Assembly: GCA_964246795.1 (NCBI GenBank)
Contig: CAXTRR010000013.1
Span: 2,895 to 66,894 of the forward strand
Direction: 5' to 3'
Source: an uncultured Terriglobus sp.
Lineage (GTDB): Bacteria > Acidobacteriota > Terriglobia > Terriglobales > Acidobacteriaceae
Length of the DNA stretch: 64,000 bases
Within the stretch, counting starts at the first letter, position 1, and the number at the start of each line of letters is the position of its first letter. Below, one piece after another: positions 4,153-62,814 of the stretch. The notes beneath the pieces are model-generated. The model did not search any database, had not been told where the DNA came from, and was given only the letters and a program-made list of their open reading frames with translations. A program made the translations under genes and the position numbers.

Positions 4153-4740
4153 TTACCCAACGTGAGGACGCTGAAGGATCTCAAGCCTGACCCTGGCCAG
4201 GCCGCTGCGCAGGATACCGAGTTCATCGGCTGCGGCCGCGGAAAGATCGATCACGCGACCCGGGGCCAGCACACCGCGGTCATTAATCCGAACGATGACG
4301 GAGCGGCTTGTGTTCAGGTCCGTGACGCGGACAATGGTGCCAAAGGGGAGGGTACGGTGCGCCGCGGTCAACTCGTGCTCGGCAAAGGTCTCACCAGAAG
4401 CGGTATGGTGCCCCTCCAACACGGAACCATACCAGGAGGCAATACCGCTGAGCGGATTGGTGTGGAAGACGCTGGCGTGCACAACACGGTTGAAGAAGCG
4501 AGTTCCGGCGTTTTGCCGGCGGACCTTGGCGAGCGCTGCCGCGGGCGGCTCCACAGGGCGGGCGAGGGCCAGTGGATGGTGGCGCGCCGTATGGACGTGA
4601 TACACCGTTGCAGTGACGCCACAGATGCTGGCCGCGGACATGCAGCCGGCTACCAGAATGGCCCTGGCACGGCCTTCGATGGAGTTACTGCGGAAGCCGT
4701 GCCGGAATGCAGGCAGGGCGTGCCTTCCTCGGCTCAGCAA
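4153..4740 (-). CDS. rlpA: Septal ring lytic transglycosylase RlpA-family lipoprotein (DPBB domain)
   Basis: GIASWYGSVLEGHHTASGETFAEHELTAAHRTLPFGTIVRVTDLNTSRSVIVRINDRGVLAPGRVIDLS is the RlpA double-psi beta-barrel signature. Lipobox ILVAGC. The maximal ORF extends to 4908; TTG at 4740 gives a sensible signal peptide. Confidence 0.8.
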   Translation of the reverse strand: MLSRGRHALPAFRHGFRSNSIEGRARAILVAGCMSAASICGVTATVYHVHTARHHPLALARPVEPPAAALAKVRRQNAGTRFFNRVVHASVFHTNPLSGIASWYGSVLEGHHTASGETFAEHELTAAHRTLPFGTIVRVTDLNTSRSVIVRINDRGVLAPGRVIDLSAAAADELGILRSGLARVRLEILQRPHVG

Positions 4741-5006
4741 GCCCGCCGGCTGGAGGGAAGGAGCGGTGGAAGTGGCCAAAGGCGAGAAGCTCTCAAAACC
4801 TTTGGAAGTTTTGGCGCGGAAGTCGAGAACCGGGTCTTTTCCGGGGCGATTGCTGATCAAGCAGATACCTGCACGACGAAGAACCGAACGGGGCTTGCTT
4901 TCCCACAAGCTTCTATGTTGCTTTGGTCAGAGGGACGCTGTTGTGTCGAGCCTTCCGCGGCGCCCTTCCTGAAAGACATACGCGGCATGGTGTTCCGGCT
5001 CCAGCA

Positions 5007-6413
5007 ATGTCCCTGAGCTCCCCTGTTTTCTTCGTCTTCTTTCTGACTGGAATTGCGCTCTTCTGGGCGCTTGTTCGGTTCCGGAGAGCCCAGCAAGTGG
5101 TGCTGCTGCTATGCAATCTCTTTTTCCTGGCGAAGTTCGGCCTGGTGTACCTGCTGCTTCCACTGGCGGCCACGATCGACTTCGGGCTTGGACGCGCACT
5201 CGGGAAGCAGGCAAGCTCACCCCGACTTCGCCAAACCTTGGTTAGCCTATCACTGATCCTGAATCTCGGACTGCTCCTTTTGTTCAAACTTCTCCCACTT
5301 TTGCGGGGCAATGTCTGGGGCTGGCTCTTCACCCTGAGCCTCTCGTTTTATTGCTTTCAATCACTTAGCTACACCATCGACCTGTACCGGGGCGAAGCCA
5401 AGGCCGAGCCGGACATCCTGCGCTATCTGGGTGCGGCGCTCTTCTTTCCGGTGATCCTGGCCGGACCTATCCCCCGCACTACCAAGCTGCTGAAGCAGAT
5501 GGCGAAGCCCTTTGCCCTGAGCCGCGAACAGGCCGCCACGGCGCTTCTGCTGATCGGCACCGGCCTGGTAAAGAAGCTGCTGGTGGCCGACTATTTGGCC
5601 GACAACTTCGTGAACCGCGTCTTTGACACGCCCACCCTTTACAGTGGCGCGGAAAATCTGCTGGCCGTCTACGGCTATGCTCTGCAGCTCTTCATGGACT
5701 TCAGCGGCTACACGGACATTGCCATCGGCGTGGCGCTGCTGCTCGGCTTTACCGTGCCGGAGAACTTCCGCACGCCCTATCTGGCAACCAACCTGCAGGA
5801 CTTCTGGAAGCGCTGGCACATCAGCTTCTCGTCATGGCTGACGGATTACCTGTTCGAGTCGCTCCCCAAAAGCCGCCGTTTTCCGCCGGTCACCTATGGG
5901 TACGCGTTTGTGCTGACGTTTCTGCTGGGCGGCCTCTGGCACGGGATCACGTGGAACTTCCTCATTTGGGGCGCGTTGCACGGGGTTGGCCTGTGGTGCT
6001 TTTACCTGCTTACGCTTTGGCGGCGAAAGCGGGGCAAGAATCTACGCCTCAAAACCGAGACGTCGAGCACCCGTGCTGCTGTTGGCCGGGTTGGGGCAAC
6101 GTTGCTGACCTTCCACTTCGTCTGCTTTACCTGGATTTTCTTTCGTGCTCAGGACCTCCCCACCGCAAAGCTGATCCTGCGGCAGATTGGCTCGCATACC
6201 GCGGGCCTGGAGAATGTGACGCCGCTGCTGGCCGGCGTGCTCATTTTTGCGGCACTCGCGCACTGCATTCCGCCGGAGTGGTTTGCGGCCTGCGCGCGGC
6301 TGGGCGACCGCATTCCCTTCTGGGCGCAGGGAGCGGCGCTGGCCGGTGTTGTGCTGCTCATCCAGGCGCTGGCGGGACAAGGATCGGCGGGGTTTGTGTA
6401 TGGCAATTTCTAA
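5007..6413 (+). CDS. MBOAT-family membrane O-acyltransferase (AlgI/PatA/DltB-like)
   Basis: Polytopic membrane protein with MBOAT motifs FWKRWHISFSSWLTDYLF and LGGLWHG. ATG at 5007 gives an MSLSSPVFFVFFL... N-terminus typical of AlgI-like proteins. Confidence 0.9.
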   Translation: MSLSSPVFFVFFLTGIALFWALVRFRRAQQVVLLLCNLFFLAKFGLVYLLLPLAATIDFGLGRALGKQASSPRLRQTLVSLSLILNLGLLLLFKLLPLLRGNVWGWLFTLSLSFYCFQSLSYTIDLYRGEAKAEPDILRYLGAALFFPVILAGPIPRTTKLLKQMAKPFALSREQAATALLLIGTGLVKKLLVADYLADNFVNRVFDTPTLYSGAENLLAVYGYALQLFMDFSGYTDIAIGVALLLGFTVPENFRTPYLATNLQDFWKRWHISFSSWLTDYLFESLPKSRRFPPVTYGYAFVLTFLLGGLWHGITWNFLIWGALHGVGLWCFYLLTLWRRKRGKNLRLKTETSSTRAAVGRVGATLLTFHFVCFTWIFFRAQDLPTAKLILRQIGSHTAGLENVTPLLAGVLIFAALAHCIPPEWFAACARLGDRIPFWAQGAALAGVVLLIQALAGQGSAGFVYGNF

Positions 6414-8070
6414 CGAAGGCAGCAAGCCGGCGGGCCAGCGAGCGAGCGAGACAGCGATTGCCGCCGGAGCTTTTCCGGCGAAGGCCGCACTGGCGCTTGG
6501 TACGGCAATCATCCTCCTCTTTGGTGCGCACTGGTGGCGGGACGGCCATGGCGACCGTTCGCGCGGCGTTGACTTCCTGAGCTTTCCGGGCATGGTGCGG
6601 CAGGCCGCGATGCTGCATCTGCCGCGACGGCCGCACCCCGCTACGTCCACATCGCCGCTGAACGGCGTGCAACTTACCCGCAACCAGAGCGCTTCTTCCC
6701 TGGCCAACGGAACCCCTTCCTCTGTCGGCGCGCCAGCCAACCAGCCAGCCCGGCCGCCCGGGGCGCCCGGGGCGCCCGCCGGCATCTCACCCGTACTGAT
6801 CGACGACAGCCGTGCCCTCGACCCCTTCTTCGCCCAGTTGTGGACACTGCAGCAGCACAAGCAGCCGCAAGTCGTGACCGTGCTGCATTACGGCGACTCG
6901 CCCACCACCGCCGACCTGATCACTGGCGATGTCCGCGCCATTCTTCAGGAGCGCTTTGGCGATGCCGGCCACGGCTATAACCTGGGCGCAAAGCCTTGGG
7001 CCTGGTACGGCCACCGCGACGTGGAAATCAGCGACAAGGGCTGGGCTTCCTCACAGAAGGACGCTACCGGCGTTGGCCGCATGGAGCAGAGCATTTACGG
7101 CCTGGGCGGAGCCATCTTTACCGGCAGCGCGGGCGCGCAAACCGTGTACACGCTCAAAGACGCAGCAGCGGCGCCACCAACTTCCGTGACAGTGAGCTAC
7201 TTCGCTTCGCCAGGGTCGGGCACGCTCACGGTCTCCTCCGGCGACACCTCGATCGTGACCATCGCGACGGGCGCGGAGACATCCGGGCCTGCATCGACGG
7301 CCGTTCCGCTGCCGCCCGGCACCAAGTCGGTCAAACTGGCCGTCACCAACGGTACGGTGAAGCTCTTTGGCGCGGACTTCCGGCGTGGCGATGCCGGCAT
7401 TCTCTACGACTCGCTCGGCCTGAACGGTGCGACCACGACGGTGATCTCCCGCACTTTCGACCCAGAGGCGTGGGCGGCGGAGTTGAAGCAGGCCAGCCCA
7501 TCGCTCATCGTGATCAATTACGGCACGAACGAAAGCCAGTTCAGCGGCCTGGTGGAAACGCTCGACAAGGAGCTGCGCGCGGCCATCGACAAAACGCGTG
7601 CGGCCGCGCCCGGCGTGCCCATCCTGATCATGAGTCCAATGGATCGTGGCGAGCACAGCGGCTCCGATATCCACACCAATCCGGCCATCCCGCAGATCGT
7701 CGCCATCCAGCAGAAAGTTGCGGCCGACACCCATTGCGCCTTCTTCAACACCTATCAGGCCATGGGCGGCGACGGCACCATGGCGCGCTGGTACGGGGCC
7801 AGTCCCCGCCTGGTGACGGCCGACTTGATCCACCCCACGCCGCAGGGCGCCGTGATCGTAGCGCAACTGCTGGTGGACGACCTGTACCGCGGCTTCGACC
7901 GCTGGAAGCGCGCGCAGGGCATCGGCGTTGTAGTCGTGAAAAACCCCAGCGACGTGGCAAAAGAGCGTGCCGAAGCCAAAGCCAAGGCCAACGCCGAGCG
8001 GAAAGCGGTAAGAGCCAAAGCTCTGGAGGAGAAAAGGGCTGCTACTGCAGCAAAAAGGAATTCGCCTTAA
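6400..8070 (+). CDS. Exported SGNH/GDSL-family hydrolase/acyltransferase (PatB/AlgJ/DltD-like partner of the MBOAT)
   Basis: ATG 6400 overlaps the MBOAT stop by 14 nt. N-terminal signal anchor. SGNH blocks VLHYGDSPTTAD, LIVINYGTNES, DLIHPTPQGA. Lys/Ala-rich C-terminal tail. Paralogue of 55538-57478. Confidence 0.8.
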   Translation: MAISNEGSKPAGQRASETAIAAGAFPAKAALALGTAIILLFGAHWWRDGHGDRSRGVDFLSFPGMVRQAAMLHLPRRPHPATSTSPLNGVQLTRNQSASSLANGTPSSVGAPANQPARPPGAPGAPAGISPVLIDDSRALDPFFAQLWTLQQHKQPQVVTVLHYGDSPTTADLITGDVRAILQERFGDAGHGYNLGAKPWAWYGHRDVEISDKGWASSQKDATGVGRMEQSIYGLGGAIFTGSAGAQTVYTLKDAAAAPPTSVTVSYFASPGSGTLTVSSGDTSIVTIATGAETSGPASTAVPLPPGTKSVKLAVTNGTVKLFGADFRRGDAGILYDSLGLNGATTTVISRTFDPEAWAAELKQASPSLIVINYGTNESQFSGLVETLDKELRAAIDKTRAAAPGVPILIMSPMDRGEHSGSDIHTNPAIPQIVAIQQKVAADTHCAFFNTYQAMGGDGTMARWYGASPRLVTADLIHPTPQGAVIVAQLLVDDLYRGFDRWKRAQGIGVVVVKNPSDVAKERAEAKAKANAERKAVRAKALEEKRAATAAKRNSP

Positions 8071-52617: not shown

Positions 52618-53613
52618 TTACGAATTGCTGTCATCAAAGGAGCCGCCGTCGTCTCCCCCGAAGCCGCTATCGCCTGAATCGAAATCACTGCCGGTGTCGA
52701 ATCCGTTGCCGGAATCGCTATTGTCCGAGAGATTGTCGCCATCCGTATCGGCCAGGCCATAGCCGCCCGTGCCGGAGTAGCCGCCCGTGCCGGAGTCGCC
52801 GCCCGTGCCGGAGTCGCCCAGGAAATTCGACCCGCCCCGGCGGTCCTCAATGTCCGAGCTCAAGCCGCTGCCGGCATCGGCCTGCTGCGTGACTGCGTCA
52901 TGAAAGGCACTGTCACCGCCGCTGCTGTCACCCGGATTGCCGGTGTCTGTAAATCCGCGGCTGTCGCCCAGCACATCGCGGTCTGAGCCGTATCCGGCGG
53001 CATGGCCAAATCCATGCATCATGCCTTCCAGTCCCTGCGTCAGCAGCTCCCCGGCGGCCACGCCCGCAGCCACCTGCATGGCGCCCTGCAGGAAACCGCC
53101 ACCGCCAAAGCCGCCGCCGCCCATCATACCTCCGCCAGAGGGCGCATACCCATAGCCAGGCTGCCCATAGGCGGGCTGGCCATAGCCGTAGCCCTGAGGT
53201 GCATATTGCGGGGGAGGATAGGGCTGCCCCTGCGGCGGCATCGGCTGGCCGCCCTGGTAAACCGCTGAGCCATAACCCTGTCCCGGCTGCCCGGCAGGCT
53301 TCGCCGGGCGGTTTGGGTCCGGAGTGTGCGAACCGAAGATCTTTTCCAGAAAGCTGGGCTGGTGCTCCGTGGACCCGCCTGTTTGCTGCTGCAGCGCCTG
53401 CACCTGCTCACGTGCCTGCTGCAGTTGCGTTTGCGCCTGCTCCAGCGCGTAGCTCTGCACCAGCACCGTCTGGCACAGGATGTAAAGAGCGTTTGGATCG
53501 CCACCGAGACCGTTCTGGATTTCGCGCTGTGCTTCCGCATCCTTCGCCGTCTCCGGCGCGTTCTTTACGCGGCCAATCAAGCCGTCCAGCAACTGCTGTT
53601 CCTGTGATGTCAT
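52618..53613 (-). CDS. DUF2076-domain protein with acidic Gly/Ser/Asp-rich repeat tail
   Basis: MTSQEQQLLDGLIGRVKNAPETAKDAEAQREIQNGLGGDPNALYILCQTVLVQSYALEQAQTQLQQ matches the DUF2076 N-domain. A Gly-rich middle is followed by GGFLQGAMQVAAGVAAGELL. Three 18-nt tandem repeats at 52761-52814 encode (D/Y)SGTGG. Confidence 0.75.
   Translation of the reverse strand: MTSQEQQLLDGLIGRVKNAPETAKDAEAQREIQNGLGGDPNALYILCQTVLVQSYALEQAQTQLQQAREQVQALQQQTGGSTEHQPSFLEKIFGSHTPDPNRPAKPAGQPGQGYGSAVYQGGQPMPPQGQPYPPPQYAPQGYGYGQPAYGQPGYGYAPSGGGMMGGGGFGGGGFLQGAMQVAAGVAAGELLTQGLEGMMHGFGHAAGYGSDRDVLGDSRGFTDTGNPGDSSGGDSAFHDAVTQQADAGSGLSSDIEDRRGGSNFLGDSGTGGDSGTGGYSGTGGYGLADTDGDNLSDNSDSGNGFDTGSDFDSGDSGFGGDDGGSFDDSNS
52761..52814. 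repeat. 3 x 18-nt tandem repeat inside the DUF2076 gene
   Basis: AGCCGCCCGTGCCGGAGT occurs twice, then CGCCGCCCGTGCCGGAGT. Confidence 0.8.
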
Positions 53614-53721: not shown

Positions 53722-54696
53722 TTACGCCGGCAGCAGCAGCATCGCTCCCCAATTCAGGCCAGCTCCAAAGGCGCTCAACACCACCGGTCCGCCGGGAGCC
53801 GGATGAGGTCGAAGATACTCCTCCAGCGCAATCAGCAAGGAAGCTGACGAGGTGTTCCCGTACCTCTGAATGTTCGTGAAAAAACGGTCAGCCGGCAGCT
53901 TCAAGCTACCCGCCACCTTCAGCAGCAGGTTCAGGTTGGCCTGGTGCAGCACGTATTGCTCCACAGCTTCCGCCGCAATGCCGTTGCGCCGCAGCAGCTC
54001 CGTGATGGCCGCGGGCAGCTTGCGAGAGGCGCGCAGGATCACCGAGCCGCCCTCCATGTGCAGCTGCTCGCCCTCCATGTAGAGCACGTCGGCACCGCTG
54101 CCATCCGTGTAAAGCACCGCGTCCGCCAGGCGCATCTGCGGGGAAGGTGGCCTGGACCCGGAACTGTCGACCGGCATCGTCTCCGCCGGTTTCGTGGGAT
54201 CGATCAAGCACGCACCGGCTCCGTCTCCAAAGAGGATGGCCGTATTCACCCCTGCGGGCGTGCGCTCTATGCGGCGGCTCATGATTTCCGTCCCAATCAC
54301 CAGCACCTTGCCCACGTGCGGCGCGAAACGCATCGCCATCGTCATCGCAATCAGTGACCCGGCGCTTGCCACGGGGATGTCCAGCGCGGGCGTTGAGTTC
54401 AGTCCCAGCCGGGCCGCCACCGTGCTGGCCGGGCCGGGGCAAAATCGCTCGGCTGAGCCGCTGCTCACCAGAATCATGCCCACTTCGGCCGGCGTGATCT
54501 CCGTGCGCTGGAGGCAGTCCTGCGCCGCCAGCACGGCCAGGTCCGCCGTGCTCTGCCCATCCGCGGCATACCGGCGCTGCTCAATGCCACTGACGGAGCG
54601 GATCCACTCCGCCGGCTGGCCCACCAGCGCGGCAAGCTCGCTGTTGTCCACGATCCGCTCGGGCAGGTAACAGCCAGTCGCACGCAGAAAGCTCAT
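53722..54696 (-). CDS. KAS III (FabH)-fold enzyme with active-site Cys replaced by Ser; acyltransferase-type
   Basis: FabH-like throughout (ERIVDNSELA..., VLHQANLNLL, YGNTSSASL, FGAGLNWGA). The AACAG nucleophile motif reads VASAG. Ser111 codon AGC = complement of 54364-54366. There is an extra Pro/Ser-rich insertion DPTKPAETMPVDSSGSRPPSPQMR. Confidence 0.85.
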   Translation of the reverse strand: MSFLRATGCYLPERIVDNSELAALVGQPAEWIRSVSGIEQRRYAADGQSTADLAVLAAQDCLQRTEITPAEVGMILVSSGSAERFCPGPASTVAARLGLNSTPALDIPVASAGSLIAMTMAMRFAPHVGKVLVIGTEIMSRRIERTPAGVNTAILFGDGAGACLIDPTKPAETMPVDSSGSRPPSPQMRLADAVLYTDGSGADVLYMEGEQLHMEGGSVILRASRKLPAAITELLRRNGIAAEAVEQYVLHQANLNLLLKVAGSLKLPADRFFTNIQRYGNTSSASLLIALEEYLRPHPAPGGPVVLSAFGAGLNWGAMLLLPA

Positions 54697-54887
54697 GCGG
54701 CTATCTTTTCATTCCTGTCTTGCCCGGGGTAAAGCTTTTCCGGGGGAACGTACTGCGACTTTCGTTCCAGTGTCCGCAGGCGCGGGCGCGGATACACTCA
54801 GGCCAATCCTTCGGCGGTCCGGCCGTCGCGATGAGCTCTCCTGCCCAGGCGTTCCCAATTTCCGCGCTCAACGCGGAAACGGCAAAC

Positions 54888-54910
54888 GCTCCGAGTTAGA
54901 GGCTCGGAGC
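54888..54910 (-). terminator. Hairpin, possible terminator after the carrier-protein gene
   Basis: GCTCCGAG-N7-CTCGGAGC (8-bp stem). On the minus strand it is followed by GTTTGCCGTTTCC. Confidence 0.3.
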
Positions 54911-55216
54911 GTTCGTGCGTCGAAGGAGGTGAGATGCCCATGCGGCCAATTCTGGTCAAATGGGGCAAGTTTCGGTTGCAGATACCTACTGAAGTAGTGA
55001 TCTATCTGCTGCTGAGAGCGCTCAGCCATTTGTAACTCGAATGGACTTGGCTGTTTCACAAACCCGTTCCCCTCGCCCCGGAAAAGCGGGGGACGGCCTT
55101 TCCGCTCAGGAACGTCTTCCCGTGCGGAATGTTCCTAGTGTGATGCAGGACGGCTAGCCTTTGCAAGAGTTTTCTCGACCGCCAGCGCCGGATTTCCCTC
55201 CAAGAGAGGACCGGTG

Positions 55217-55525
55217 CTACTCCGCCTTGGCCGCCAGATAGCTGTCGACCTTGTCAATCGTGTCGAACTTGCGCGCTGAAAGATCGCTGTCCGGGATGGA
55301 GACGCCGAACTCCGACTCAAGCCCGCTCACAAAATCGGGCAATGCGAAGCTGTCCAGCAGCCCGGAAGAGAACAGGGATTCGTCCTCCTCCGGCGTGATT
55401 TGCTTGCCCGCTACCGCCTGCAACACTTTTAGGATCCCCGGCTTCCTGTCCACAGCATTCTCCTTCTTCAAAAGTTTCTGATCCACGGCAGCCATTGTGA
55501 TGCAGAAACGCTCAGAGCTTGCCAT
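55217..55525 (-). CDS. DltC-like acyl/aminoacyl carrier protein
   Basis: LFSSGLLDSFALPDFVSGLESEFGVSIPDSDLSARKFDTIDKVDSYL aligns with the DltC/ACP phosphopantetheine-attachment region (LFESGLLDSM...). The start is either 55525 or 55495. Confidence 0.75.
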   Translation of the reverse strand: MASSERFCITMAAVDQKLLKKENAVDRKPGILKVLQAVAGKQITPEEDESLFSSGLLDSFALPDFVSGLESEFGVSIPDSDLSARKFDTIDKVDSYLAAKAE

Positions 55526-55537
55526 CGAGCGGCGTTT

Positions 55538-57478
55538 CTACGGCACATAGCCGCTGTAGGCCGAGAGCAGATCCGCCACCAGCGCATCGGCCAGCGCCCG
55601 GTAGCCCGGACCCGTCAAGTGGGTGTGGTCCGGCTGGGCATAACCCGCCGCCACCCAGCGGCCCACTGAGCCAAAACCACCCTGCCGCGCGCGCCAGTCC
55701 CAGAAAGCGCAGTCGTGCGTCCGGCAGACCTCACGCTGTGCGTTCAGGATGCGGTCGGTTCCGCTGTAGGGTGCATAGTACCGGTGTGCAATGCGGTGGG
55801 CGCGGCGGCCACGGCCCACCACGGTGTACGTTGTCGAGCCGATGGAGCGGTCACCCGGCCCAAGCACCAGAATGGACGCTTCCGGAGCGGTGCGGTGCAG
55901 CATGTCAATGAGCCGCGCAAAGGTAGCGCGGTATTCCTCGCCGCCCCAGCGCGCGGCAGCTTCGTTGGTTCCATAGGCCAGCACGATCAATTGGGGCGCG
56001 GCGGCGGCCATGTATCCCTGGAAAAGCCGCTGGTTCCAGCGCAGCAGCAGTGGCGCTTCCGCGCCATTTATGCCGATGGACTCCCACGTGATGCCGGGCT
56101 GCAGAGCGACCGTCCCTAGCAGCCGGACAGGCCCACCCCCCTGCGAGGTGAAGCTGAAGTGGTGTGACCCTGCCGGGCAGTCATAGTGGAGCGCGCCAAG
56201 GGCAGGGCTGCTTCCATCCGCGGAGTTCTCCGGCGCGTTCAACTGGGCCGTAGTGTCGGTCGTCTCCGCGGGCTCCGGCAGAGTGGGAGCCGTGTTGGAG
56301 GGCGCGGTGGCTGGAATGCTCGTGGACGCGCCCATACCTGCGGCTCCGTAAAGCACCGGGCCGCCGGTGCCGGCAGTCGACACCGTTTCCACGGCAAAAC
56401 CGTTGTCGGCAAACTGAAAGCTGCCGCCCCCCGCCTGCCGTAGATAGTGCACCTCCAGCTTCAGGCAGGGTGCATCCAGTGAAGCGGCGTCACCGGCTCG
56501 CTCCGACTGAATCGCGACGCCGCCCAGTCCGAGCAGGCCGTCACCCAGTTGAGTGAAGTGCGTGCCCAGCGTGGTCCAGGACCCGCTCTGGCCGCGTCCC
56601 GAACCCAGAATGCGATAGCCGGCGAACGGGTGCCCCGCGTAGGAGAAGCCCACGCCGCCATCGCCGAAGCGGTTCTGCATGCGTGCGCGCGCCTGGCCGG
56701 TGAACATGTCTGCAGCGGTGTGCGAGTCGCCCCACTGCAGGATGCGAACGGGCTGGTCACCCGGTGACTGCTCCCTCTGCTGCAACGCAGCAAAGAATTT
56801 TCGCAAAGCCTGGGGAAACTGCAGCGCCGTTCCACCCTGGGCAAGCATTTGCGCGATGGGATTGCTGGAAAGCAGCGGCGAGGTGGTGCGCGCCTCGGCC
56901 GCGGCGGAAAGGTCCTCCGCGGAACTTTGCGGAAGGGAGGAATCCTCATCCCCGGCGCGCTGGGGGGCCTGGGTCCGGGGTGCCGTCGCCTGAGGCACCG
57001 TTGCTCTGGGAACCGACGCCTGGGGCGGCGCTGCCTGGGCCATTGTTGCCTGGGGTGCCGGGGAAAGGAGTGGCCGCGCAGTGGGAGCCGTCGATGACAC
57101 TGGCCCTAGAGCAGTTCTCTTCGCGATGCTCGCCGCCGGCAGCTGCAGGGGCGTTTGCGGCCGCAGGGGCGGGCTGAATGCCTGGAATGGCGAATTTCCG
57201 GCGTGCCGGGAACCGCTCGTACTTCTGGCAGCGGTTGAAACTGAGCCTGGCCGGCCACGGTGAGAAGCAGAGCTCGTCCCTGCCGAACTGTTCCGGCCTT
57301 TCGCGGGCTCTGCGGCGGAGTGTTTTCCGGAACGTGTTCCGGGCGGACGCGATCGTGCCGCGGGCGCATGAGTGGAACGGGGTCGAGCCGGCTTTGAGCT
57401 TTGCAGGTGGAAGGCGGCATGCCGGGCACCCTCTGCCCAGAGCGACCCCGCGGCCAGAACCGGACACAGCAGCAACAA
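55538..57478 (-). CDS. Exported SGNH-family protein (DltD/PatB-like), paralogue of 6400-8070, with long Pro/Ala/Ser-rich linker
   Basis: TTG start and short hydrophobic N-terminus. About 230 aa of low-complexity linker. SGNH blocks ILQWGDSHTAADMF, LIVLAYGTNEAA, DHTHLTGPGY. RMQNRFGDGGVGFSYAGHPFAGY parallels ILQERFGDAGHGYNLGAKPWAWY of the 6400 gene. Confidence 0.75.
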   Translation of the reverse strand: MLLLCPVLAAGSLWAEGARHAAFHLQSSKPARPRSTHAPAARSRPPGTRSGKHSAAEPAKGRNSSAGTSSASHRGRPGSVSTAARSTSGSRHAGNSPFQAFSPPLRPQTPLQLPAASIAKRTALGPVSSTAPTARPLLSPAPQATMAQAAPPQASVPRATVPQATAPRTQAPQRAGDEDSSLPQSSAEDLSAAAEARTTSPLLSSNPIAQMLAQGGTALQFPQALRKFFAALQQREQSPGDQPVRILQWGDSHTAADMFTGQARARMQNRFGDGGVGFSYAGHPFAGYRILGSGRGQSGSWTTLGTHFTQLGDGLLGLGGVAIQSERAGDAASLDAPCLKLEVHYLRQAGGGSFQFADNGFAVETVSTAGTGGPVLYGAAGMGASTSIPATAPSNTAPTLPEPAETTDTTAQLNAPENSADGSSPALGALHYDCPAGSHHFSFTSQGGGPVRLLGTVALQPGITWESIGINGAEAPLLLRWNQRLFQGYMAAAAPQLIVLAYGTNEAAARWGGEEYRATFARLIDMLHRTAPEASILVLGPGDRSIGSTTYTVVGRGRRAHRIAHRYYAPYSGTDRILNAQREVCRTHDCAFWDWRARQGGFGSVGRWVAAGYAQPDHTHLTGPGYRALADALVADLLSAYSGYVP

Positions 57479-58070: not shown

Positions 58071-58544
58071 GTGAAGTATTTTCGAAGGGAATTAAAAGTA
58101 TGCGAAGGGTGCGGAGGCCTATGGGTCCGCACCGGAACCGAAGCAGGGGTGTATTGCCGCCACTGCTGCCCGCTACTGGCCGATCTGCCCGGCCGGCGCA
58201 AATACAGCCCGGGCCGGCCATGCAAAGCGCGTGGAGGGTCCACGACGGCGCTGCACGTGGTTCACGCAGCCGCGCTGGAGAAGGAGGAAACGCCACGCGG
58301 GCGCTGCCGGCGAAACTCCATGCTGCCGACAGTGGAGCACGATGCAGAAGCGGACCGGTCAGCCGCCACTCGCCGTGCCGCCATGAGCCTGCACCAGGGC
58401 GGTCAGGCTACGTCCCAAAAGACGGTAGCGAGGGCGGAGGAAGTCTCTGCATCCGCAGCGGCGTTTCTGCCCGCAGCGGTCGAGATGCCCCGTTTGCTCT
58501 CGATTGTCCCCATGATCCATGCCGTGGCAGGAGGTGCCCGATGA
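58071..58544 (+). CDS. Hypothetical zinc-ribbon protein (CxxC...CxxCC) with disordered tail
   Basis: GTG start with GGAG 7 nt upstream. N-terminus KVCEGCGGLWVRTGTEAGVYCRHCC. The stop overlaps the next start (ATGA at 58541-58544). Confidence 0.4.
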   Translation: MKYFRRELKVCEGCGGLWVRTGTEAGVYCRHCCPLLADLPGRRKYSPGRPCKARGGSTTALHVVHAAALEKEETPRGRCRRNSMLPTVEHDAEADRSAATRRAAMSLHQGGQATSQKTVARAEEVSASAAAFLPAAVEMPRLLSIVPMIHAVAGGAR

Positions 58545-59179
58545 AGCTGTTGACAATGCCAAGCCATAGAGAAAACACGAACGTTGCCAACTCTGACAGC
58601 ACCTCCCATGCCGTGAGCCAGATATGGGCGACCGAGGGCAACCTGGCGCGGGCCGTGGTCGCCATACACGCCGAGGCGCACAGACCGGCCAATGCCCAGG
58701 CCGAGCTACCGCAGCGGCCCGCGCTCCGTGTGGTAATCACGCCGGAGACGGCCTTCTACCGCAAGTACACAGAGGCCATGCTGCGGAGGTATGCGGTGAT
58801 GAAGCTGCAGAAAGGCCGCGTTCCCTCCCTGCTGGGGCGCGAACTCTTCCGCGGAAAGGTGACGAGTTGCCGCATCCACGGCTTTGACGACATGATCCAC
58901 TACGTGCTGGATGTGGAGAGCTGCCTGAAGCTGCTGAACGCCGACCAGCAGAAGGTGGTTTTCCGGGTGGCAGTGCAGGAGTACACCTTGGGGGAAGCGG
59001 CGGCGATGCTGCGCTGGAGCCTGCGCTCGACCCAGCGCCGCTACAACGAGGCAATCGACGAACTGACCGCCATCTTTCAGAAGCGGAAGCTGATGGAGAG
59101 GACGCCAGGCCTGAAGCAGCAAAATCGCTGTCAAGAGGGAGAAGATGGGGGCGTGGCTGTAACTTACACTCCCGAATAG
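58541..59179 (+). CDS. Sigma-70 region-4-like HTH regulator (divergent ECF-like?)
   Basis: GGAGG RBS and ATG at 58541. AFYRKYTEAMLRRYAVM is region-2-like. LLNADQQKVVFRVAVQEYTLGEAAAMLRWSLRSTQRRYNEAIDELTAIF is a region-4-type HTH. The family assignment is tentative. Confidence 0.45.
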   Translation: MKLLTMPSHRENTNVANSDSTSHAVSQIWATEGNLARAVVAIHAEAHRPANAQAELPQRPALRVVITPETAFYRKYTEAMLRRYAVMKLQKGRVPSLLGRELFRGKVTSCRIHGFDDMIHYVLDVESCLKLLNADQQKVVFRVAVQEYTLGEAAAMLRWSLRSTQRRYNEAIDELTAIFQKRKLMERTPGLKQQNRCQEGEDGGVAVTYTPE

Positions 59180-59320: not shown

Positions 59321-59364
59321 CATTGCGGGTGTTTGCCAACTTCACTCACTTCAGAGGAGCCTTC

Positions 59365-62300
59365 ATGCACTTCGGTTTTCCAAAGCGCGCCGGCAGCGCA
59401 GCGCCTCCTGCCATCAGGCCGCATCCAGCAGGAGTCCCTGGCTGGCGGCTTTTCAAGCTGTATACCTCGGCTCTTGGTTTAAGCACCGCGTTGGCGACCA
59501 CAGTGGGCGTCCTGTTGCCGCTGGCGGTGTTGCCGGTGTCGGCGCAGGCGCAGCAGGCCGCCACGACCGCCATTACAGATACAGTGCTGCAGGCCAATGG
59601 CTCGCCCGCGCAGGGTGTGGTGCTGATCAGCTGGCCGGCGTTTACCGGGGCAAGCGGCGTTGCCATTCCGCAGGGCAGCACCTCTGTCACGCTGGGCGGC
59701 AATGGCTCGCTGAGTGTGCAGCTGGTACCCAATGCGGGCAGCACGCCGCTGGGCAGCTTTTACACGGTGGTGTACCACCTGAGCGATGGCACGGTAACGC
59801 GGGAGTACTGGTCAGTGCCCGCAAGCAGCGGTGCGGTCGCGCTGAGCGCGGTGCGCACGTCTGTGCTGCCGGCCTCGGTCGCGGTGCAAACCGTCTCCAA
59901 GCAGTATGTGGACACGGCGATTGCGCGAGCTGTGCAGGGTGGCGCGGTTGCAGGCGGCACAGTTGCAGCGGGGCCGGGGGCGGGGAACACCACGCCCTAC
60001 GTTCAGAAGGCGGGCGACACGATGACCGGACCGCTGCAGCTTTCCGGTGATCCGGCCACCGGCCTGCAGGCCGCCGATAAAAGTTATGTGGACGGCAATG
60101 TGGCCGCGGCCCAGGCCGGCCTGAACCAGAAGGTGAGCAAGATACCCACGGGCACCCAGATCGTAACGCAGCCCGCCGGAACACAGCTGCGGACCAACCG
60201 GCTGAACGCAGAACTGTATGCGAGCCAGTTCTTTTCCAGCTTTGGCAATGACGGCATTGCCAACGCCTTCAACGCGCCGGAGTGCGGGGCAAATTGTCAG
60301 GTGATTGCCGAGCCGGATTACAACGGCAACGACTCACTTCCCGCCGGCAAGTTTGGCGCGCATCTTTCTGACCGGCGGCTGGGGCAGCTAAGCGAGACGT
60401 TTACCGGCCGGGAGGGTGGCGGCCTGCAGTATGGCACCAACATTGTGCGCACGGACGCGCAGCACCCGGCCACTGTAACCAGTACGCTGCAGACCACGGC
60501 GTTGCGGCTGCAGCAATCGGGCCTGCGGGGCGGCAACAATCTGTTTCCGGAGGGCGTCACCTCCGCGCTGCCGTACTTCAAAACGACCTATGGCACGCTG
60601 ATCGAGCAGGCCGATAACTATGCGCAGGGACAGCACGTGATGGATACGCGCGTGACCAATTGTTACGGCGTGGGCGATTGCCTGATCCATGGTGATTTCA
60701 TGAGCAGCTCGGGCGGCTTTCGCGATGCGGCCGACGAGGGCGCGCACCCGGCCGACCTGCAATACACCGAGGACACGCGCGTGCCACGGGGCAACTGCGG
60801 CACGGGCTGCACCACCGGTTCGCAATCACTGAAGGTGAACTTTACGAGCGGCGCGGGTACACAGGGAGATGGACGTTTTCTGGTCGATCTGGAGCCCTCA
60901 AAGGGCTACAGCGGCAATGCGCTGATTGGTGGTGACTCCGGTGGCTACCCGGCCGCGACGGCGGTTTTTACCGGCACCAGTTTTCCAGTGAGTACCTTCT
61001 TCAGCACGGCGGGGGCGGCGCTGCCGCAGAGCAACAATATGGCACCGGGAGCGGTGACGCTGCCGATTGCGACGGGCGGCGTGATTGCGGGCTTCAGCAC
61101 CAACACGGCAAGCGCACCGGCCGGCAGCGGCACGGCCTGCGTGGCGGATGCCATCAGCGGCGGCACCGCGACCCCGGAAAACTATGAGATGGCCCCCTAC
61201 ACCGTGGTGGACGGCACGCACCTGAGACTGACTCTCTTGAAGCCGCATGCGACAGGCTCAGTGGTGGCCATGGGCGGATTGTGCGGCTACGGCCTGGAGC
61301 AGACAATTGACAGCTCCAACGGCTATCAGCAGGTGTTTCCGATTGTTGGGTCAAGCAGCGGAACGTCACTCTATGTGGCGTCTGGCCTGACATCGATTGT
61401 GGGGCGAAACTTCAGCACGAGCGGGTATCTGAATCTGCAGTTCCAGGTGACCTCAGTGGTGCGGTCGAACAATGTGGTGACGGTGAACATCACCAACACG
61501 GCCGCGGGCGACCTGACCGGCTTGCCGCTGACGTTGGCAGGTGTGGCGGACGCGAGCTTCAACGGGACGTTCAATATGTCGACCGTGGGGAGCGGCCAGT
61601 TCAGCTATCCGCAGACAGGGCCGAATGCGAGCTCCAGCGGCGGCACGCTGGTGATTGTGACAAGCGGCTACAACATCTACCCTATGGCGGAAGTGCTGGA
61701 CGTTTACAACGACGCGACCGGCAACGTGGACGGCCAGATGACGCTGGCACCCAACACCGTGCCGTGGGCGGCGGGCGACCGCGTGACGCAGCCACACTAC
61801 TTCCAGCAGCGTGTGGGCGCGGACGTGACGTACATCACGCAGTACACACCGCGGCCAAGCGCTTATCAGCCCGCCGGCATTTATTACCAGGGCAACAACG
61901 GCGGCGGGCTGCGCGGCTGGGTGATTGCCAACAACACGCCGGCGCAGAGCTACCTTGGCGATGGCGGCACGCATGTGCCTCCGGACTTTGCCTTCGGCAA
62001 CAGCGGCGTCTGGAATACGACGGCCGACTTCCAGGCAGGCGAGCAGACGGCCTTCCGCATGCATTGCAACGGCCGCGGGTGCAGCCGCTTTGACAGCACG
62101 TATAACCTGTTTGCGCTGGACAACAGCGTGGGCGGCGGCTCTTACGACGCGGTCACATGGGCCCCGCAAACCAGCACCATGACGTGGAACATGCGCGGCG
62201 CGCAGTACAGCATGAGTCCCACGGCCATGACGGTGGGCACGCTGAATGTGACGAACCTGAATGCAAGCCACATCAGCGGCAGCACGGCGGCCACCAGCAC

Positions 62301-62814
62301 GGCGCAGGGCTCGGTTCAGCTTGGACCGACGGCGACCAGCTTTATCCTGTCGAACGTGGCAAGCAGCGGCGCGGCCAGTGACATGACCGGGCTGGCACCG
62401 AGCGCGACGATTGACACGACAAACGCGGCAAATATCACCGGCGGCACGCTCGATCCGGCGCGTTTGCCGCCCGGCATCGGGGGTGGGTCGTGCGCTTCGA
62501 CGATTGCGTTCAGCGCGGCACCAGCCATCGCGGTGAGCTGCAGCAATGCGCTGATCCACGTGCCGCTCACCGGCAACATGACCGGCATGAGCTTTACGGG
62601 ATTGCAGGCGGGCCAACGTATCACGCTGGTCTTTCAGGTGGGCGGTACGGGTGGGTACACGGTGCAGTGGCCATCACAGGTGCATGGCGGATTTGCGACG
62701 AGCACCAGCAACACGTCGCCCTTCTATGCGCAGGCGGGCAAGTACTTTGTGCAGCAACTGGTGGTGGACGCCGATGGCGCAACGCTGCTGAATCCGGGGG
62801 CGGTGAATCAGTGA
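59365..62814 (+). CDS. Secreted giant protein with phage tail-fibre-like motifs
   Basis: GAGGAG RBS and ATG at 59365. Sec-type signal ...LAVLPVSAQAQQ. Ig/CarbopepD-like first domain. KQYVDTAIA and GDTMTGPLQLSGDPATGLQAADKSYVDGNV match the phage tail-fibre repeat (GGTMTG.L) and collar motifs. Gly/Thr/Ser-rich beta-rich body. Confidence 0.8.
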   Translation: MHFGFPKRAGSAAPPAIRPHPAGVPGWRLFKLYTSALGLSTALATTVGVLLPLAVLPVSAQAQQAATTAITDTVLQANGSPAQGVVLISWPAFTGASGVAIPQGSTSVTLGGNGSLSVQLVPNAGSTPLGSFYTVVYHLSDGTVTREYWSVPASSGAVALSAVRTSVLPASVAVQTVSKQYVDTAIARAVQGGAVAGGTVAAGPGAGNTTPYVQKAGDTMTGPLQLSGDPATGLQAADKSYVDGNVAAAQAGLNQKVSKIPTGTQIVTQPAGTQLRTNRLNAELYASQFFSSFGNDGIANAFNAPECGANCQVIAEPDYNGNDSLPAGKFGAHLSDRRLGQLSETFTGREGGGLQYGTNIVRTDAQHPATVTSTLQTTALRLQQSGLRGGNNLFPEGVTSALPYFKTTYGTLIEQADNYAQGQHVMDTRVTNCYGVGDCLIHGDFMSSSGGFRDAADEGAHPADLQYTEDTRVPRGNCGTGCTTGSQSLKVNFTSGAGTQGDGRFLVDLEPSKGYSGNALIGGDSGGYPAATAVFTGTSFPVSTFFSTAGAALPQSNNMAPGAVTLPIATGGVIAGFSTNTASAPAGSGTACVADAISGGTATPENYEMAPYTVVDGTHLRLTLLKPHATGSVVAMGGLCGYGLEQTIDSSNGYQQVFPIVGSSSGTSLYVASGLTSIVGRNFSTSGYLNLQFQVTSVVRSNNVVTVNITNTAAGDLTGLPLTLAGVADASFNGTFNMSTVGSGQFSYPQTGPNASSSGGTLVIVTSGYNIYPMAEVLDVYNDATGNVDGQMTLAPNTVPWAAGDRVTQPHYFQQRVGADVTYITQYTPRPSAYQPAGIYYQGNNGGGLRGWVIANNTPAQSYLGDGGTHVPPDFAFGNSGVWNTTADFQAGEQTAFRMHCNGRGCSRFDSTYNLFALDNSVGGGSYDAVTWAPQTSTMTWNMRGAQYSMSPTAMTVGTLNVTNLNASHISGSTAATSTAQGSVQLGPTATSFILSNVASSGAASDMTGLAPSATIDTTNAANITGGTLDPARLPPGIGGGSCASTIAFSAAPAIAVSCSNALIHVPLTGNMTGMSFTGLQAGQRITLVFQVGGTGGYTVQWPSQVHGGFATSTSNTSPFYAQAGKYFVQQLVVDADGATLLNPGAVNQ

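Follow-up and report, generated by a model that had tools for sequence, protein, structure and literature searches.

A DltC-like carrier protein and a serine-variant FabH homologue encoded with putative PatA/Ape1-type acylation genes in Terriglobia

According to a 2025 mechanistic paper, the pathways other than Dlt that combine a membrane-bound O-acyltransferase (MBOAT) with SGNH-family proteins work without a carrier protein: those acting on peptidoglycan, alginate, cellulose, and secondary wall polymers use acyl-CoA, and Dlt alone has a carrier together with an adenylating enzyme (PMC12148441). The FxYxxF motif is an acyl-Tyr shuttle, as experimentally shown for DltX and for PatA, in which it is fused to the MBOAT, and PatA-type MBOATs with a fused Tyr motif use acetyl-CoA directly (PMC12148441). 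Here, we describe a locus in a 64,000-nucleotide stretch of the genome of an uncultured Terriglobus sp. (GenBank assembly GCA_964246795.1, contig CAXTRR010000013.1; this whole stretch is hereafter called the window). Three minus-strand genes at 53722–57478 encode an SGNH protein, a DltC-like carrier protein, and a homologue of FabH (KAS III, for ketoacyl-ACP synthase III) that has Ser in place of the nucleophilic Cys, designated KAS III(Ser). Judged from synteny in relatives, this trio makes up one half of a five-gene system conserved in Terriglobia, MBOAT–SGNH1–SGNH2–carrier–KAS III(Ser), the first two genes of which are located elsewhere in the window. The five genes and one neighbour are as follows.

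53722–54696, minus strand: KAS III (FabH fold), 324 amino acids (aa), with Ser111, His251, and Asn281; Pfam ACP_syn_III and ACP_syn_III_C
55217–55453, minus strand: DltC-like carrier protein, 78 aa from GTG 55453; Pfam PP-binding, best NCBIfam model DltC
55538–57478, minus strand: SGNH2, predicted exported Ape1-like protein with a carbohydrate-binding module (CBM)-type insert and a Pro/Ala/Ser low-complexity linker; Pfam Lipase_GDSL_2
5007–6413, plus strand: MBOAT with His271 and His312 and a C-terminal FVYGNF, the detached first gene of the operon; Pfam MBOAT
6400–8070, plus strand: SGNH1, membrane-anchored, predicted Ape1-like protein of 556 aa with a GDSP block I; match to Ape1 by sequence and fold
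4153–4908, minus strand: RlpA-like lytic transglycosylase, a non-core neighbour divergent from the MBOAT gene; Pfam DPBB_1 and NCBIfam RlpA

The system resembles Dlt in that a DltC-like carrier is encoded with an MBOAT, whose solved relatives are DltB only, and with periplasmic SGNH proteins. The logic deduced from the genes would also be similar, with the acyl group passing from a carrier thioester to a Tyr of the MBOAT, to a Ser of an SGNH protein, and finally to the polymer. In contrast to Dlt, a serine-type KAS III takes the place of the adenylating DltA, the FxYxxF motif is fused to the MBOAT with no DltX, and the SGNH proteins appear to be Ape1-like rather than DltD-like. The host, a Gram-negative acidobacterium, has no teichoic acids, and the acyl group cannot be an adenylation-activated amino acid. 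With the peptidoglycan O-acetylation (OAP) cluster of PatA/PatB/Ape1, the system shares the MBOAT–SGNH–SGNH order, which corresponds to pat-ape2-ape1a (PMC1199599), an MBOAT that has the catalytic His and ends in FxYxxF, SGNH proteins predicted to adopt the Ape1 fold with a CBM35-type insert, and a lytic transglycosylase gene that is often adjoining. It differs from that cluster in the addition of the carrier and KAS III(Ser), whereas PatA uses acetyl-CoA (PMC12148441), and in having no PatB-type SGNH protein, as both paralogues are Ape1-like. The alginate (AlgI/J/F/X) and cellulose (WssF-I) acetylation systems also acylate a secreted glycan with a fused-Tyr-motif MBOAT and periplasmic SGNH-like proteins, but they have AlgX/AlgJ-type proteins and neither a carrier nor KAS III, and the system described here has no linked polysaccharide synthase. 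In its predicted gene products, it is hybrid-like between Dlt and PatA/PatB/Ape1 and a member of neither.

No characterised system of this composition was found in full-text literature searches, in agreement with the original prediction on this stretch of DNA. These searches returned no report that pairs an MBOAT with FabH, or an MBOAT with an ACP, an SGNH protein, and a ketoacyl enzyme, and none on peptidoglycan O-acetylation by an MBOAT in Acidobacteria, although other literature may differ. The combination of a PatA/Ape1-type machine with a DltC-like carrier and a Ser-variant FabH, as deduced from the genes, appears not to have been described before. The operon crosses the division between Dlt and the other pathways, with periplasmic parts of the PatA/Ape1 type, a carrier of the DltC type, and a putative loader that belongs to a third enzyme family. 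With at least 305 species-level genomes, it is fixed across an entire class of abundant soil bacteria, and hundreds of genes are probably misnamed 'ketoacyl-ACP synthase III' and 'lysophospholipase L1-like esterase'.

Synteny of the five genes in relatives

A one-genome-per-species scan with the family alignment of KAS III(Ser) found at least 305 genomes, of which the best 80 were analysed. All loci were retrieved via the KAS III gene, and the synteny counts are conditioned on the presence of KAS III(Ser). The best 80 of the 305 genomes are Terriglobia by label, except for two metagenome-assembled genomes (MAGs) labelled as other phyla. In 79 of the 80, the gene directly upstream of KAS III(Ser) is that of the carrier, mostly with a gap of 2–20 bp, and an SGNH gene is ahead of the carrier in 67 of the 73 loci with enough flanking sequence. 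The complete five-gene order was found in 50 of 64 species loci with at least 5.5 kb upstream. A compact operon of the order MBOAT–SGNH–SGNH–carrier–KAS III(Ser), with overlaps between neighbouring genes, is present in Terracidiphilus and related MAGs; the SGNH proteins have about 500 aa each, the carrier has 77–78 aa, and an RlpA-like gene is divergent upstream. In one Terracidiphilus relative (L003), the carrier stop codon overlaps the KAS III start. A metagenome scan, for which the most divergent Ser-type members served as seeds, gave 80 further loci with KAS III proteins 43–51% identical to that of the window. The full five-gene order is present in 20 of these metagenome loci, and the MBOAT gene is missing in only 2 of the 16 with at least 5.3 kb upstream.

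The original prediction had grouped the three minus-strand ORFs (open reading frames) of the trio, all of which were located as described, and the synteny of the KAS III gene with the carrier/SGNH pair extends to relatives by the counts given above. It had also noted a distant MBOAT–SGNH pair. The window indeed holds exactly one MBOAT and one SGNH paralogue outside the trio, with the SGNH1 start overlapping the MBOAT stop, and the pair belongs to the same system, forming one five-gene operon with the trio in most relatives. The remark that no MBOAT is adjacent holds for the window but not for most relatives, where the MBOAT gene heads the operon. As predicted, no adenylating enzyme adjoins the trio: AMP-binding is absent next to the window genes and among 10 of the larger window ORFs between the two halves, and no AMP-binding/adenylase, acyltransferase, or malonyl transferase gene was found in the compact five-gene operons examined. 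Because neither an adenylase nor an acyltransferase is encoded in these operons, KAS III(Ser) is the only candidate loader of the carrier, a role that we infer from the gene composition. A chance neighbourhood was rejected on the basis of the synteny conserved across hundreds of genomes, the 71 invariant columns in the family alignment of KAS III(Ser), and the sharp clade boundary described below.

The two halves of the system are about 47 kb apart in the window, with MBOAT–SGNH1 at 5007–8070 and SGNH2–carrier–KAS III in the trio. An isolate, Terriglobus aquaticus, has the same split, with the halves about 75 kb apart on one contig. The split is a feature of the Terriglobus-like clade, and the detached MBOAT–SGNH1 pair of the window keeps its divergent RlpA-like neighbour. 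The retention of both halves after their separation in the window and in T. aquaticus argues for a continued joint function.

Some carrier–KAS III(Ser) pairs occur in other surroundings. At L087 (3960–10900) and L094 (339–9975), which represent two distant lineages, the pair lies beside FliD and giant flagellin genes (1,119 and 1,121 aa) without MBOAT or SGNH, and FliW and CsrA are also present at L094. Judged from these neighbours, the gene content suggests that the cassette may supply acyl groups for modification of flagellin or its glycan at these two loci. At L078 (5266–8179), the pair is located between a NAD-dependent sugar epimerase/dehydratase and a family 2 glycosyltransferase (GT2), in place of SGNH and MBOAT. 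A lone KAS III with Ser-His-Asn, 42% identical to that of the window, was found between rho and msrB-like genes at L091–L093 (P0122, a MAG labelled Zixibacteria or Terriglobales), where tblastn revealed no carrier gene and an AMP-binding gene lies about 4 kb off on the opposite strand.

Because pairs are found in these contexts, the pair may be a portable acyl-supply cassette and not solely a partner of the MBOAT. Taken further, the carrier and KAS III(Ser) could constitute an independent cytoplasmic module that makes an acyl substituent, a small lipid, or a polyketide for glycan or flagellin modification, in which case the adjacency of the MBOAT and SGNH genes would reflect co-regulation or a shared target and the MBOAT would act on acetyl-CoA like PatA. 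The pairs beside flagellin and epimerase/GT2 genes and the physical separation from the MBOAT in the window's clade are compatible with such a module, as is the use of acetyl-CoA by characterised MBOATs with a fused FxYxxF (PMC12148441). We nevertheless consider it quite unlikely, given that the operon is tight, with genes often overlapping, across KAS III identities from 100% to about 43%, that the closest relatives of the carrier are DltC proteins, the one carrier known to feed an MBOAT, that the closest characterised relatives of the MBOAT are DltB proteins, and that the operon encodes nothing else that would consume an acyl-carrier.

The serine-type KAS III and its carrier

The Cys-to-Ser exchange noted in the original prediction was confirmed: the codon at 54366–54364 is AGC, encoding Ser111 in a VASAG motif, and the HQAN (His251) and GNTSSAS (Asn281) motifs are kept. 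The Pro/Ser-rich insertion that it described is also present, but it is specific to the window's lineage. The protein scores below the NCBIfam cut-offs for FabH (NF006829, 242.4 versus 249; TIGR00747, 210.4 versus 292.1). Ser-His-Asn was found in 120 of the 120 nearest database homologues. All 80 species genomes have Ser, in VASAG in 69 and in VASCG in 11, and all 76 of the 80 metagenome loci in which the active-site motif was readable have Ser as well. The VASCG form, in which a Cys directly follows the nucleophile Ser, occurs in L019, L022, L023, L028, L046, L050, L055, L057, L061, L062, and L068. Among 152 distinct sequences, the Ser codon belongs to the AGY class in 114 and to the TCN class in 38. 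The use of both classes indicates that Ser was maintained through codon-class switches, and the nucleophile Ser is, on this comparison of codons, a family trait held by selection. The AGC codon of the window is one base from the Cys codon TGC, which would fit a sequencing error or a decaying fabH paralogue placed in the trio by chance. That explanation is hardly credible, being already refuted by the Ser in every readable homologue, the two codon classes, the sharp clade boundary, and the conserved synteny.

The boundary of the family was examined in a search of 1.8 billion cluster representatives, with 150 matches listed. Among the matches listed, those with at least 45% identity invariably show Ser if they cover the nucleophile position, and the full-length ones have the His and Asn. 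Cys-His-Asn is present in 119 of the 150 matches listed, every one of them with an identity of at most 42%. By this comparison, KAS III(Ser) is a discrete clade with a sharp boundary to Cys-type FabH. In a profile search against the PDB, FabH was closest (2EBD, 7e-66; E. coli 1HN9, 1e-59), and the best 60 matches comprised FabH, PqsD, BioZ-type enzymes, and similar proteins, with no DpsC or CerJ entry named among them. The comparison with DpsC drawn in the original prediction does not reflect kinship, because the profile search groups the family with true FabH. On sequence grounds, the clade is derived from true FabH, keeping the His-Asn dyad, and DpsC serves as an analogy only.

FabH is thus the closest sequence family and shares its fold with KAS III(Ser), as well as Trp32, the His-Asn dyad, and the greater part of the small acyl pocket. 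Residues were compared between 156 Ser-type members and 45 Cys-type representatives, using E. coli FabH numbering. The dyad (His244/Asn274; His251/Asn281 in the window) is invariant in 156 of 156 Ser-type members, Trp32 is retained in 155 of 156, and most residues of the small acyl pocket are kept, with the Phe87 position occupied by Phe in 98 and by Cys in 47 of the 156. In the window's clade, this pocket-lining position (residue 86 of the window KAS III) is Cys. The differences from FabH are Ser in place of Cys112, Asn in place of Arg249 (155 of 156, whereas Arg is kept in 44 of the 45 Cys-type representatives), replacement of Lys214 by Leu/Met and of Lys257 by Ala/Ser/Thr, and loss of Arg36 in all Ser-type members; Arg151 is lost in some, including the window protein. 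Arg249, Lys214, and Lys256/257 form the basic AcpP-docking patch of E. coli FabH, and the loss of Arg249, Lys214, and Lys257 fits a dedicated carrier partner for KAS III(Ser). In addition, KAS III(Ser) is encoded with a DltC-like carrier and not in a fab cluster.

The enzymes DpsC, CerJ, and ChlB3 illustrate that a KAS III fold is able to act as an acyl-CoA:carrier acyltransferase or an O-acyltransferase, and DpsC that a Ser nucleophile is workable in it. In contrast to KAS III(Ser), which has Ser-His-Asn and is not closely related to them, these KAS III-fold acyltransferases have Cys-His-Asp (CerJ and ChlB3) or Ser-His-His (DpsC), and the C116S mutant of CerJ is inactive (PMC9573744). They also serve polyketide pathways rather than envelope modification.

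These active-site features bear on an alternative in which KAS III(Ser) is a malonyl-carrier decarboxylase: FabD would malonylate the carrier and the Ser enzyme, being incapable of forming an acyl-thioester, would decarboxylate it to acetyl-carrier, in analogy to KSQ, CLF, and condensing enzymes with Cys-to-Ser/Gln mutations. The E. coli FabH C112S mutant reportedly keeps its decarboxylase activity and loses condensation and transacylation. In the family, the malonyl-decarboxylating dyad His251/Asn281 is invariant while the nucleophile Cys is replaced in every member, and the CoA-contacting Arg36 is lost throughout. Dedicated KAS III-fold acyltransferases normally alter the His-Asn pair (PMC9573744), and the formation of acetyl-ACP by decarboxylation of malonyl-ACP is an established route, as in MadA (PMC8666670). 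The retention of the decarboxylation dyad, the loss of the CoA-contacting Arg, and the different dyads of the acyltransferases make decarboxylation a serious rival, which we still regard as rather unlikely. It depends on a malonyl transferase from outside, as the operons examined do not encode one; it is a roundabout source of an acetyl thioester when acetyl-CoA is available; and the CoA adenine-stacking Trp32 is retained in all but one of the members.

The carrier protein matches Pfam PP-binding with 26 bits. Its best NCBIfam model is DltC, at a score below the cut-off (36.6 versus 68), and D-alanyl carrier proteins take the first four places among the PDB matches (1DV5, 7R49, 6BUG_A, and 8JF2_F). 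A GxLDSF motif is conserved in 149 of 155 carrier orthologues, and the predicted phosphopantetheine-attachment Ser lies within the GLLDSF of the window protein, which has a pI of 4.36. The resemblance to DltC claimed in the original prediction agrees with these matches, whereas the size of about 90–100 aa, counted from 55525, is probably too large. The ORF is open up to ATG 55525, and a GTG at 55453 with AAGGAG 7 nt upstream gives a protein of 78 aa. Because of this upstream AAGGAG and because the orthologues have 77–80 aa, the carrier gene most likely spans 55217–55453 and starts at GTG 55453.

The MBOAT, the SGNH proteins, and the proposed pathway

DltB was the sole NCBIfam and PDB match of the MBOAT, with the catalytic His aligned, and the score against the NCBIfam DltB model was below the cut-off (180.6 versus 375). 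No PatA or AlgI structure was found in the PDB search, and no such NCBIfam model matched. His271, His312, and Tyr465 are invariant in 66 aligned orthologues, and FxYxxF is present at the C-terminus in 73 of 73, as FVYGNF in the window. The MBOAT therefore carries a fused shuttle motif as in PatA/AlgI and lacks the DltB plus DltX arrangement.

The GDSL blocks quoted for the gene at 55538–57478 in the original prediction are present behind the low-complexity linker. SGNH1, for which the public gene call gives the same 556-aa protein with an N-terminal membrane anchor, is 27% identical to SGNH2 (E = 2e-27). All orthologues of both paralogues (98 for SGNH2) keep blocks I, II, III, and V, with block I being an invariant GDSP in SGNH1 and an Ape1-like GDSH in SGNH2. 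Both proteins match N. meningitidis Ape1 by sequence (SGNH1, E = 7.9e-16 over its full length; SGNH2, E = 1.9e-23). The predicted model of SGNH1 (predicted local distance difference test, pLDDT, 85) has template modelling (TM) scores of 0.86 with N. meningitidis Ape1 and about 0.80 with C. jejuni Ape1, and that of SGNH2 (pLDDT 73) has TM scores of 0.77 and 0.74, respectively; in both cases, the next match is at most 0.36. For both models, the two solved Ape1 proteins are the only matches, and carbohydrate esterases all score far lower. On the basis of sequence and predicted fold, SGNH1 and SGNH2 are Ape1-like, that is, of the peptidoglycan O-acetylesterase family, and not DltD-like. An identity as DltD was rejected because no DltD model matched and both sequence and fold point to Ape1. 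An identity of SGNH1 as PatB was likewise rejected for lack of a sequence or fold match: the PatB structures (7TJB, 7TLV, 7TRR, and 8TLB) gave no match to either SGNH at E ≤ 1 and were absent from the top 50 fold matches.

The public call for SGNH2 (P0398) is a 501-aa protein from ATG 57043, without the signal peptide or hydrophobic leader of the orthologues. A hydrophobic leader like that of the orthologues is present at the start of the longer ORF from TTG 57478. The absence of a leader from the 501-aa call makes the long ORF from 57478 plausible, and the deposited start is probably wrong.

From the gene composition and conserved residues, we propose a carrier-dependent O-acylation pathway of the PatA/Ape1 type in which KAS III(Ser) charges the carrier and peptidoglycan is the probable target, and we assign this reading a probability of roughly 0.62. 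In the cytoplasm, KAS III(Ser) would load a short acyl group onto the phosphopantetheine arm of its dedicated DltC-like partner, most simply from acyl-CoA via an acyl-O-Ser111 intermediate, with no outside enzyme; direct transfer from acyl-CoA to the carrier was the idea of the original prediction. The DltB-like MBOAT would then draw the carrier-bound acyl group through its transmembrane tunnel and attach it to the Tyr of its own C-terminal FxYxxF on the periplasmic side. The membrane-anchored SGNH1, which appears to be translationally coupled to the MBOAT, would take the acyl group onto its catalytic Ser and pass it to an envelope glycan. SGNH2, the more Ape1-like paralogue, may remove acyl groups or act as a second transferase. 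The gene content, the synteny, the conservation of all catalytic residues, and the assignments to folds and families are observed, whereas all catalytic steps in this scheme, the nature of the acyl group, and the polymer that receives it are deduced from homology, conserved residues, and synteny. If this hand-off takes place, the system would be a natural experiment on the donor choice of MBOATs, a new function for the FabH fold, and an unstudied envelope modification of Acidobacteria that may affect resistance to lysozyme and autolysins in soil.

Several points weigh against this proposal. The loss of the CoA-contacting Arg36 in all Ser-type members and of Arg151 in some weakens the idea of an acyl-CoA donor. 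The family keeps a FabH-type His-Asn, whereas CerJ/ChlB3 have His-Asp and DpsC has His-His, and the C116S mutant of CerJ is inactive (PMC9573744). Since PatA-type MBOATs use acetyl-CoA directly, the MBOAT might not need a carrier, and neither SGNH protein appears, from sequence or model, to resemble the known transferase PatB. The link to RlpA is lineage-limited: an RlpA-like gene is divergent upstream of the MBOAT gene in 28 of 54 loci and absent in Bryobacterales. Finally, a minority of carrier–KAS III(Ser) pairs are without MBOAT and SGNH, and one distant member is without a carrier.

As for the target, peptidoglycan (O-6 of N-acetylmuramic acid, MurNAc) is favoured because of the Ape1 fold of both SGNH proteins, the OAP gene order, and the lytic transglycosylase neighbour, and on this predicted evidence we give it somewhat better than an even chance. 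MurNAc O-acetylation blocks lytic transglycosylases (PMC1199599). The same system may instead modify an exopolysaccharide or another envelope glycan, as in the acetylation of alginate (AlgIJFX) or cellulose (WssFGHI). Acidobacteriaceae are prolific producers of exopolysaccharides. At L005, the cluster is near GT2, RgpF, and Poly_export genes; the RlpA neighbour is missing in about half of the loci, including all Bryobacterales; inserts of the CBM35 type can also bind other glycans; and some bacterial members of the Ape family may be xylan esterases (PMC1199599). We hold such a target to be possible, though distinctly less probable than peptidoglycan, considering that both SGNH proteins match only solved peptidoglycan O-acetylesterases, that the gene order is that of OAP clusters, and that no polysaccharide synthase is conserved next to the operon in the relatives examined.

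A further version of the carrier-dependent pathway involves an acyl group other than acetate. KAS III(Ser) might perform a DpsC-like condensation or choose a donor other than acetyl-CoA, the MBOAT might export a 3-oxoacyl, propionyl, or longer acyl group onto peptidoglycan or another envelope glycan, and the same cassette might acylate flagellin glycans. We think that this is unlikely. If true, bacteria would have a kind of acyl modification that has so far not been known in them, KAS III(Ser) would form a new class of enzymes that charge carriers, and the use of a carrier would be a general way for bacterial MBOATs to select their donors.

The structured insert and other neighbours in the window

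Two further features adjoin or interrupt the trio.

54790–55060, strand unassigned: conserved non-coding insert, strongly structured and with two hairpins, which separates the carrier gene from that of KAS III
52618–53613, minus strand: DUF2076 gene directly downstream of KAS III; Pfam DUF2076, E = 1e-52

The gap between the carrier and KAS III genes, which is 2–20 bp in most relatives, is 520 bp in the window and 520–680 bp across the window and its nearest relative only. The hairpin at 54888–54910 reported in the original prediction is present, and the insert contains a second perfect hairpin. The core of the insert (about 270–280 nt) is about 97% identical to that of the nearest relative (L011, 9480–9760), whereas the flanking KAS III proteins are 81% identical. 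The predicted fold has z = −3.3 on the plus strand and −2.3 on the minus strand. A terminator scan found no canonical terminator or T-tract at the 54888–54910 hairpin, and no Rfam family matched in the insert region. The insert is single-copy in the window and was found only in L010 and L011 among 174 loci, which does not support a repeated mobile element. A 63-aa ORF within it was rejected as a gene because of a stop and a frameshift in L011. The insert is a candidate for a regulatory or antisense RNA or for an insertion like a miniature inverted-repeat transposable element (MITE). The caveat in the original prediction that KAS III might be transcriptionally separated stands for this genome, given the structured gap of 520 bp, and the coupling between the KAS III and carrier genes may be interrupted or regulated here.

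The junction between SGNH2 and the carrier seems prone to insertions. In T. aquaticus (L001, 187–7385), about 7 kb are inserted there, encoding a dienelactone hydrolase, a methyltransferase, a phosphodiesterase-TPR protein, a GNAT protein, and a PMT_2 (GT-C) glycosyltransferase, and in L010, this junction holds an inserted CHRD/PEP-CTERM gene. PMT_2 was rejected as an alternative partner in T. aquaticus, as it lies within the insertion of about 7 kb and MBOAT–SGNH1 is present elsewhere on the same contig.

Among 75 loci, 8 have a DUF2076 gene downstream of KAS III, all of them in the split, Terriglobus-like clade and none with an adjacent MBOAT. Its equivalents are in L001, L005, L010–L016, L018, and L054 and never in compact operons. 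The DUF2076 protein has a Gly/Pro-rich middle and an acidic tail rich in Ser, Asp, and Gly. Just upstream of the locus on the opposite strand is an ORF of 1,163 aa (59323–62814, plus strand) with no Pfam match, and the ORF ahead of it (58100–59179, plus strand) has a weak signal for sigma-70 region 4.

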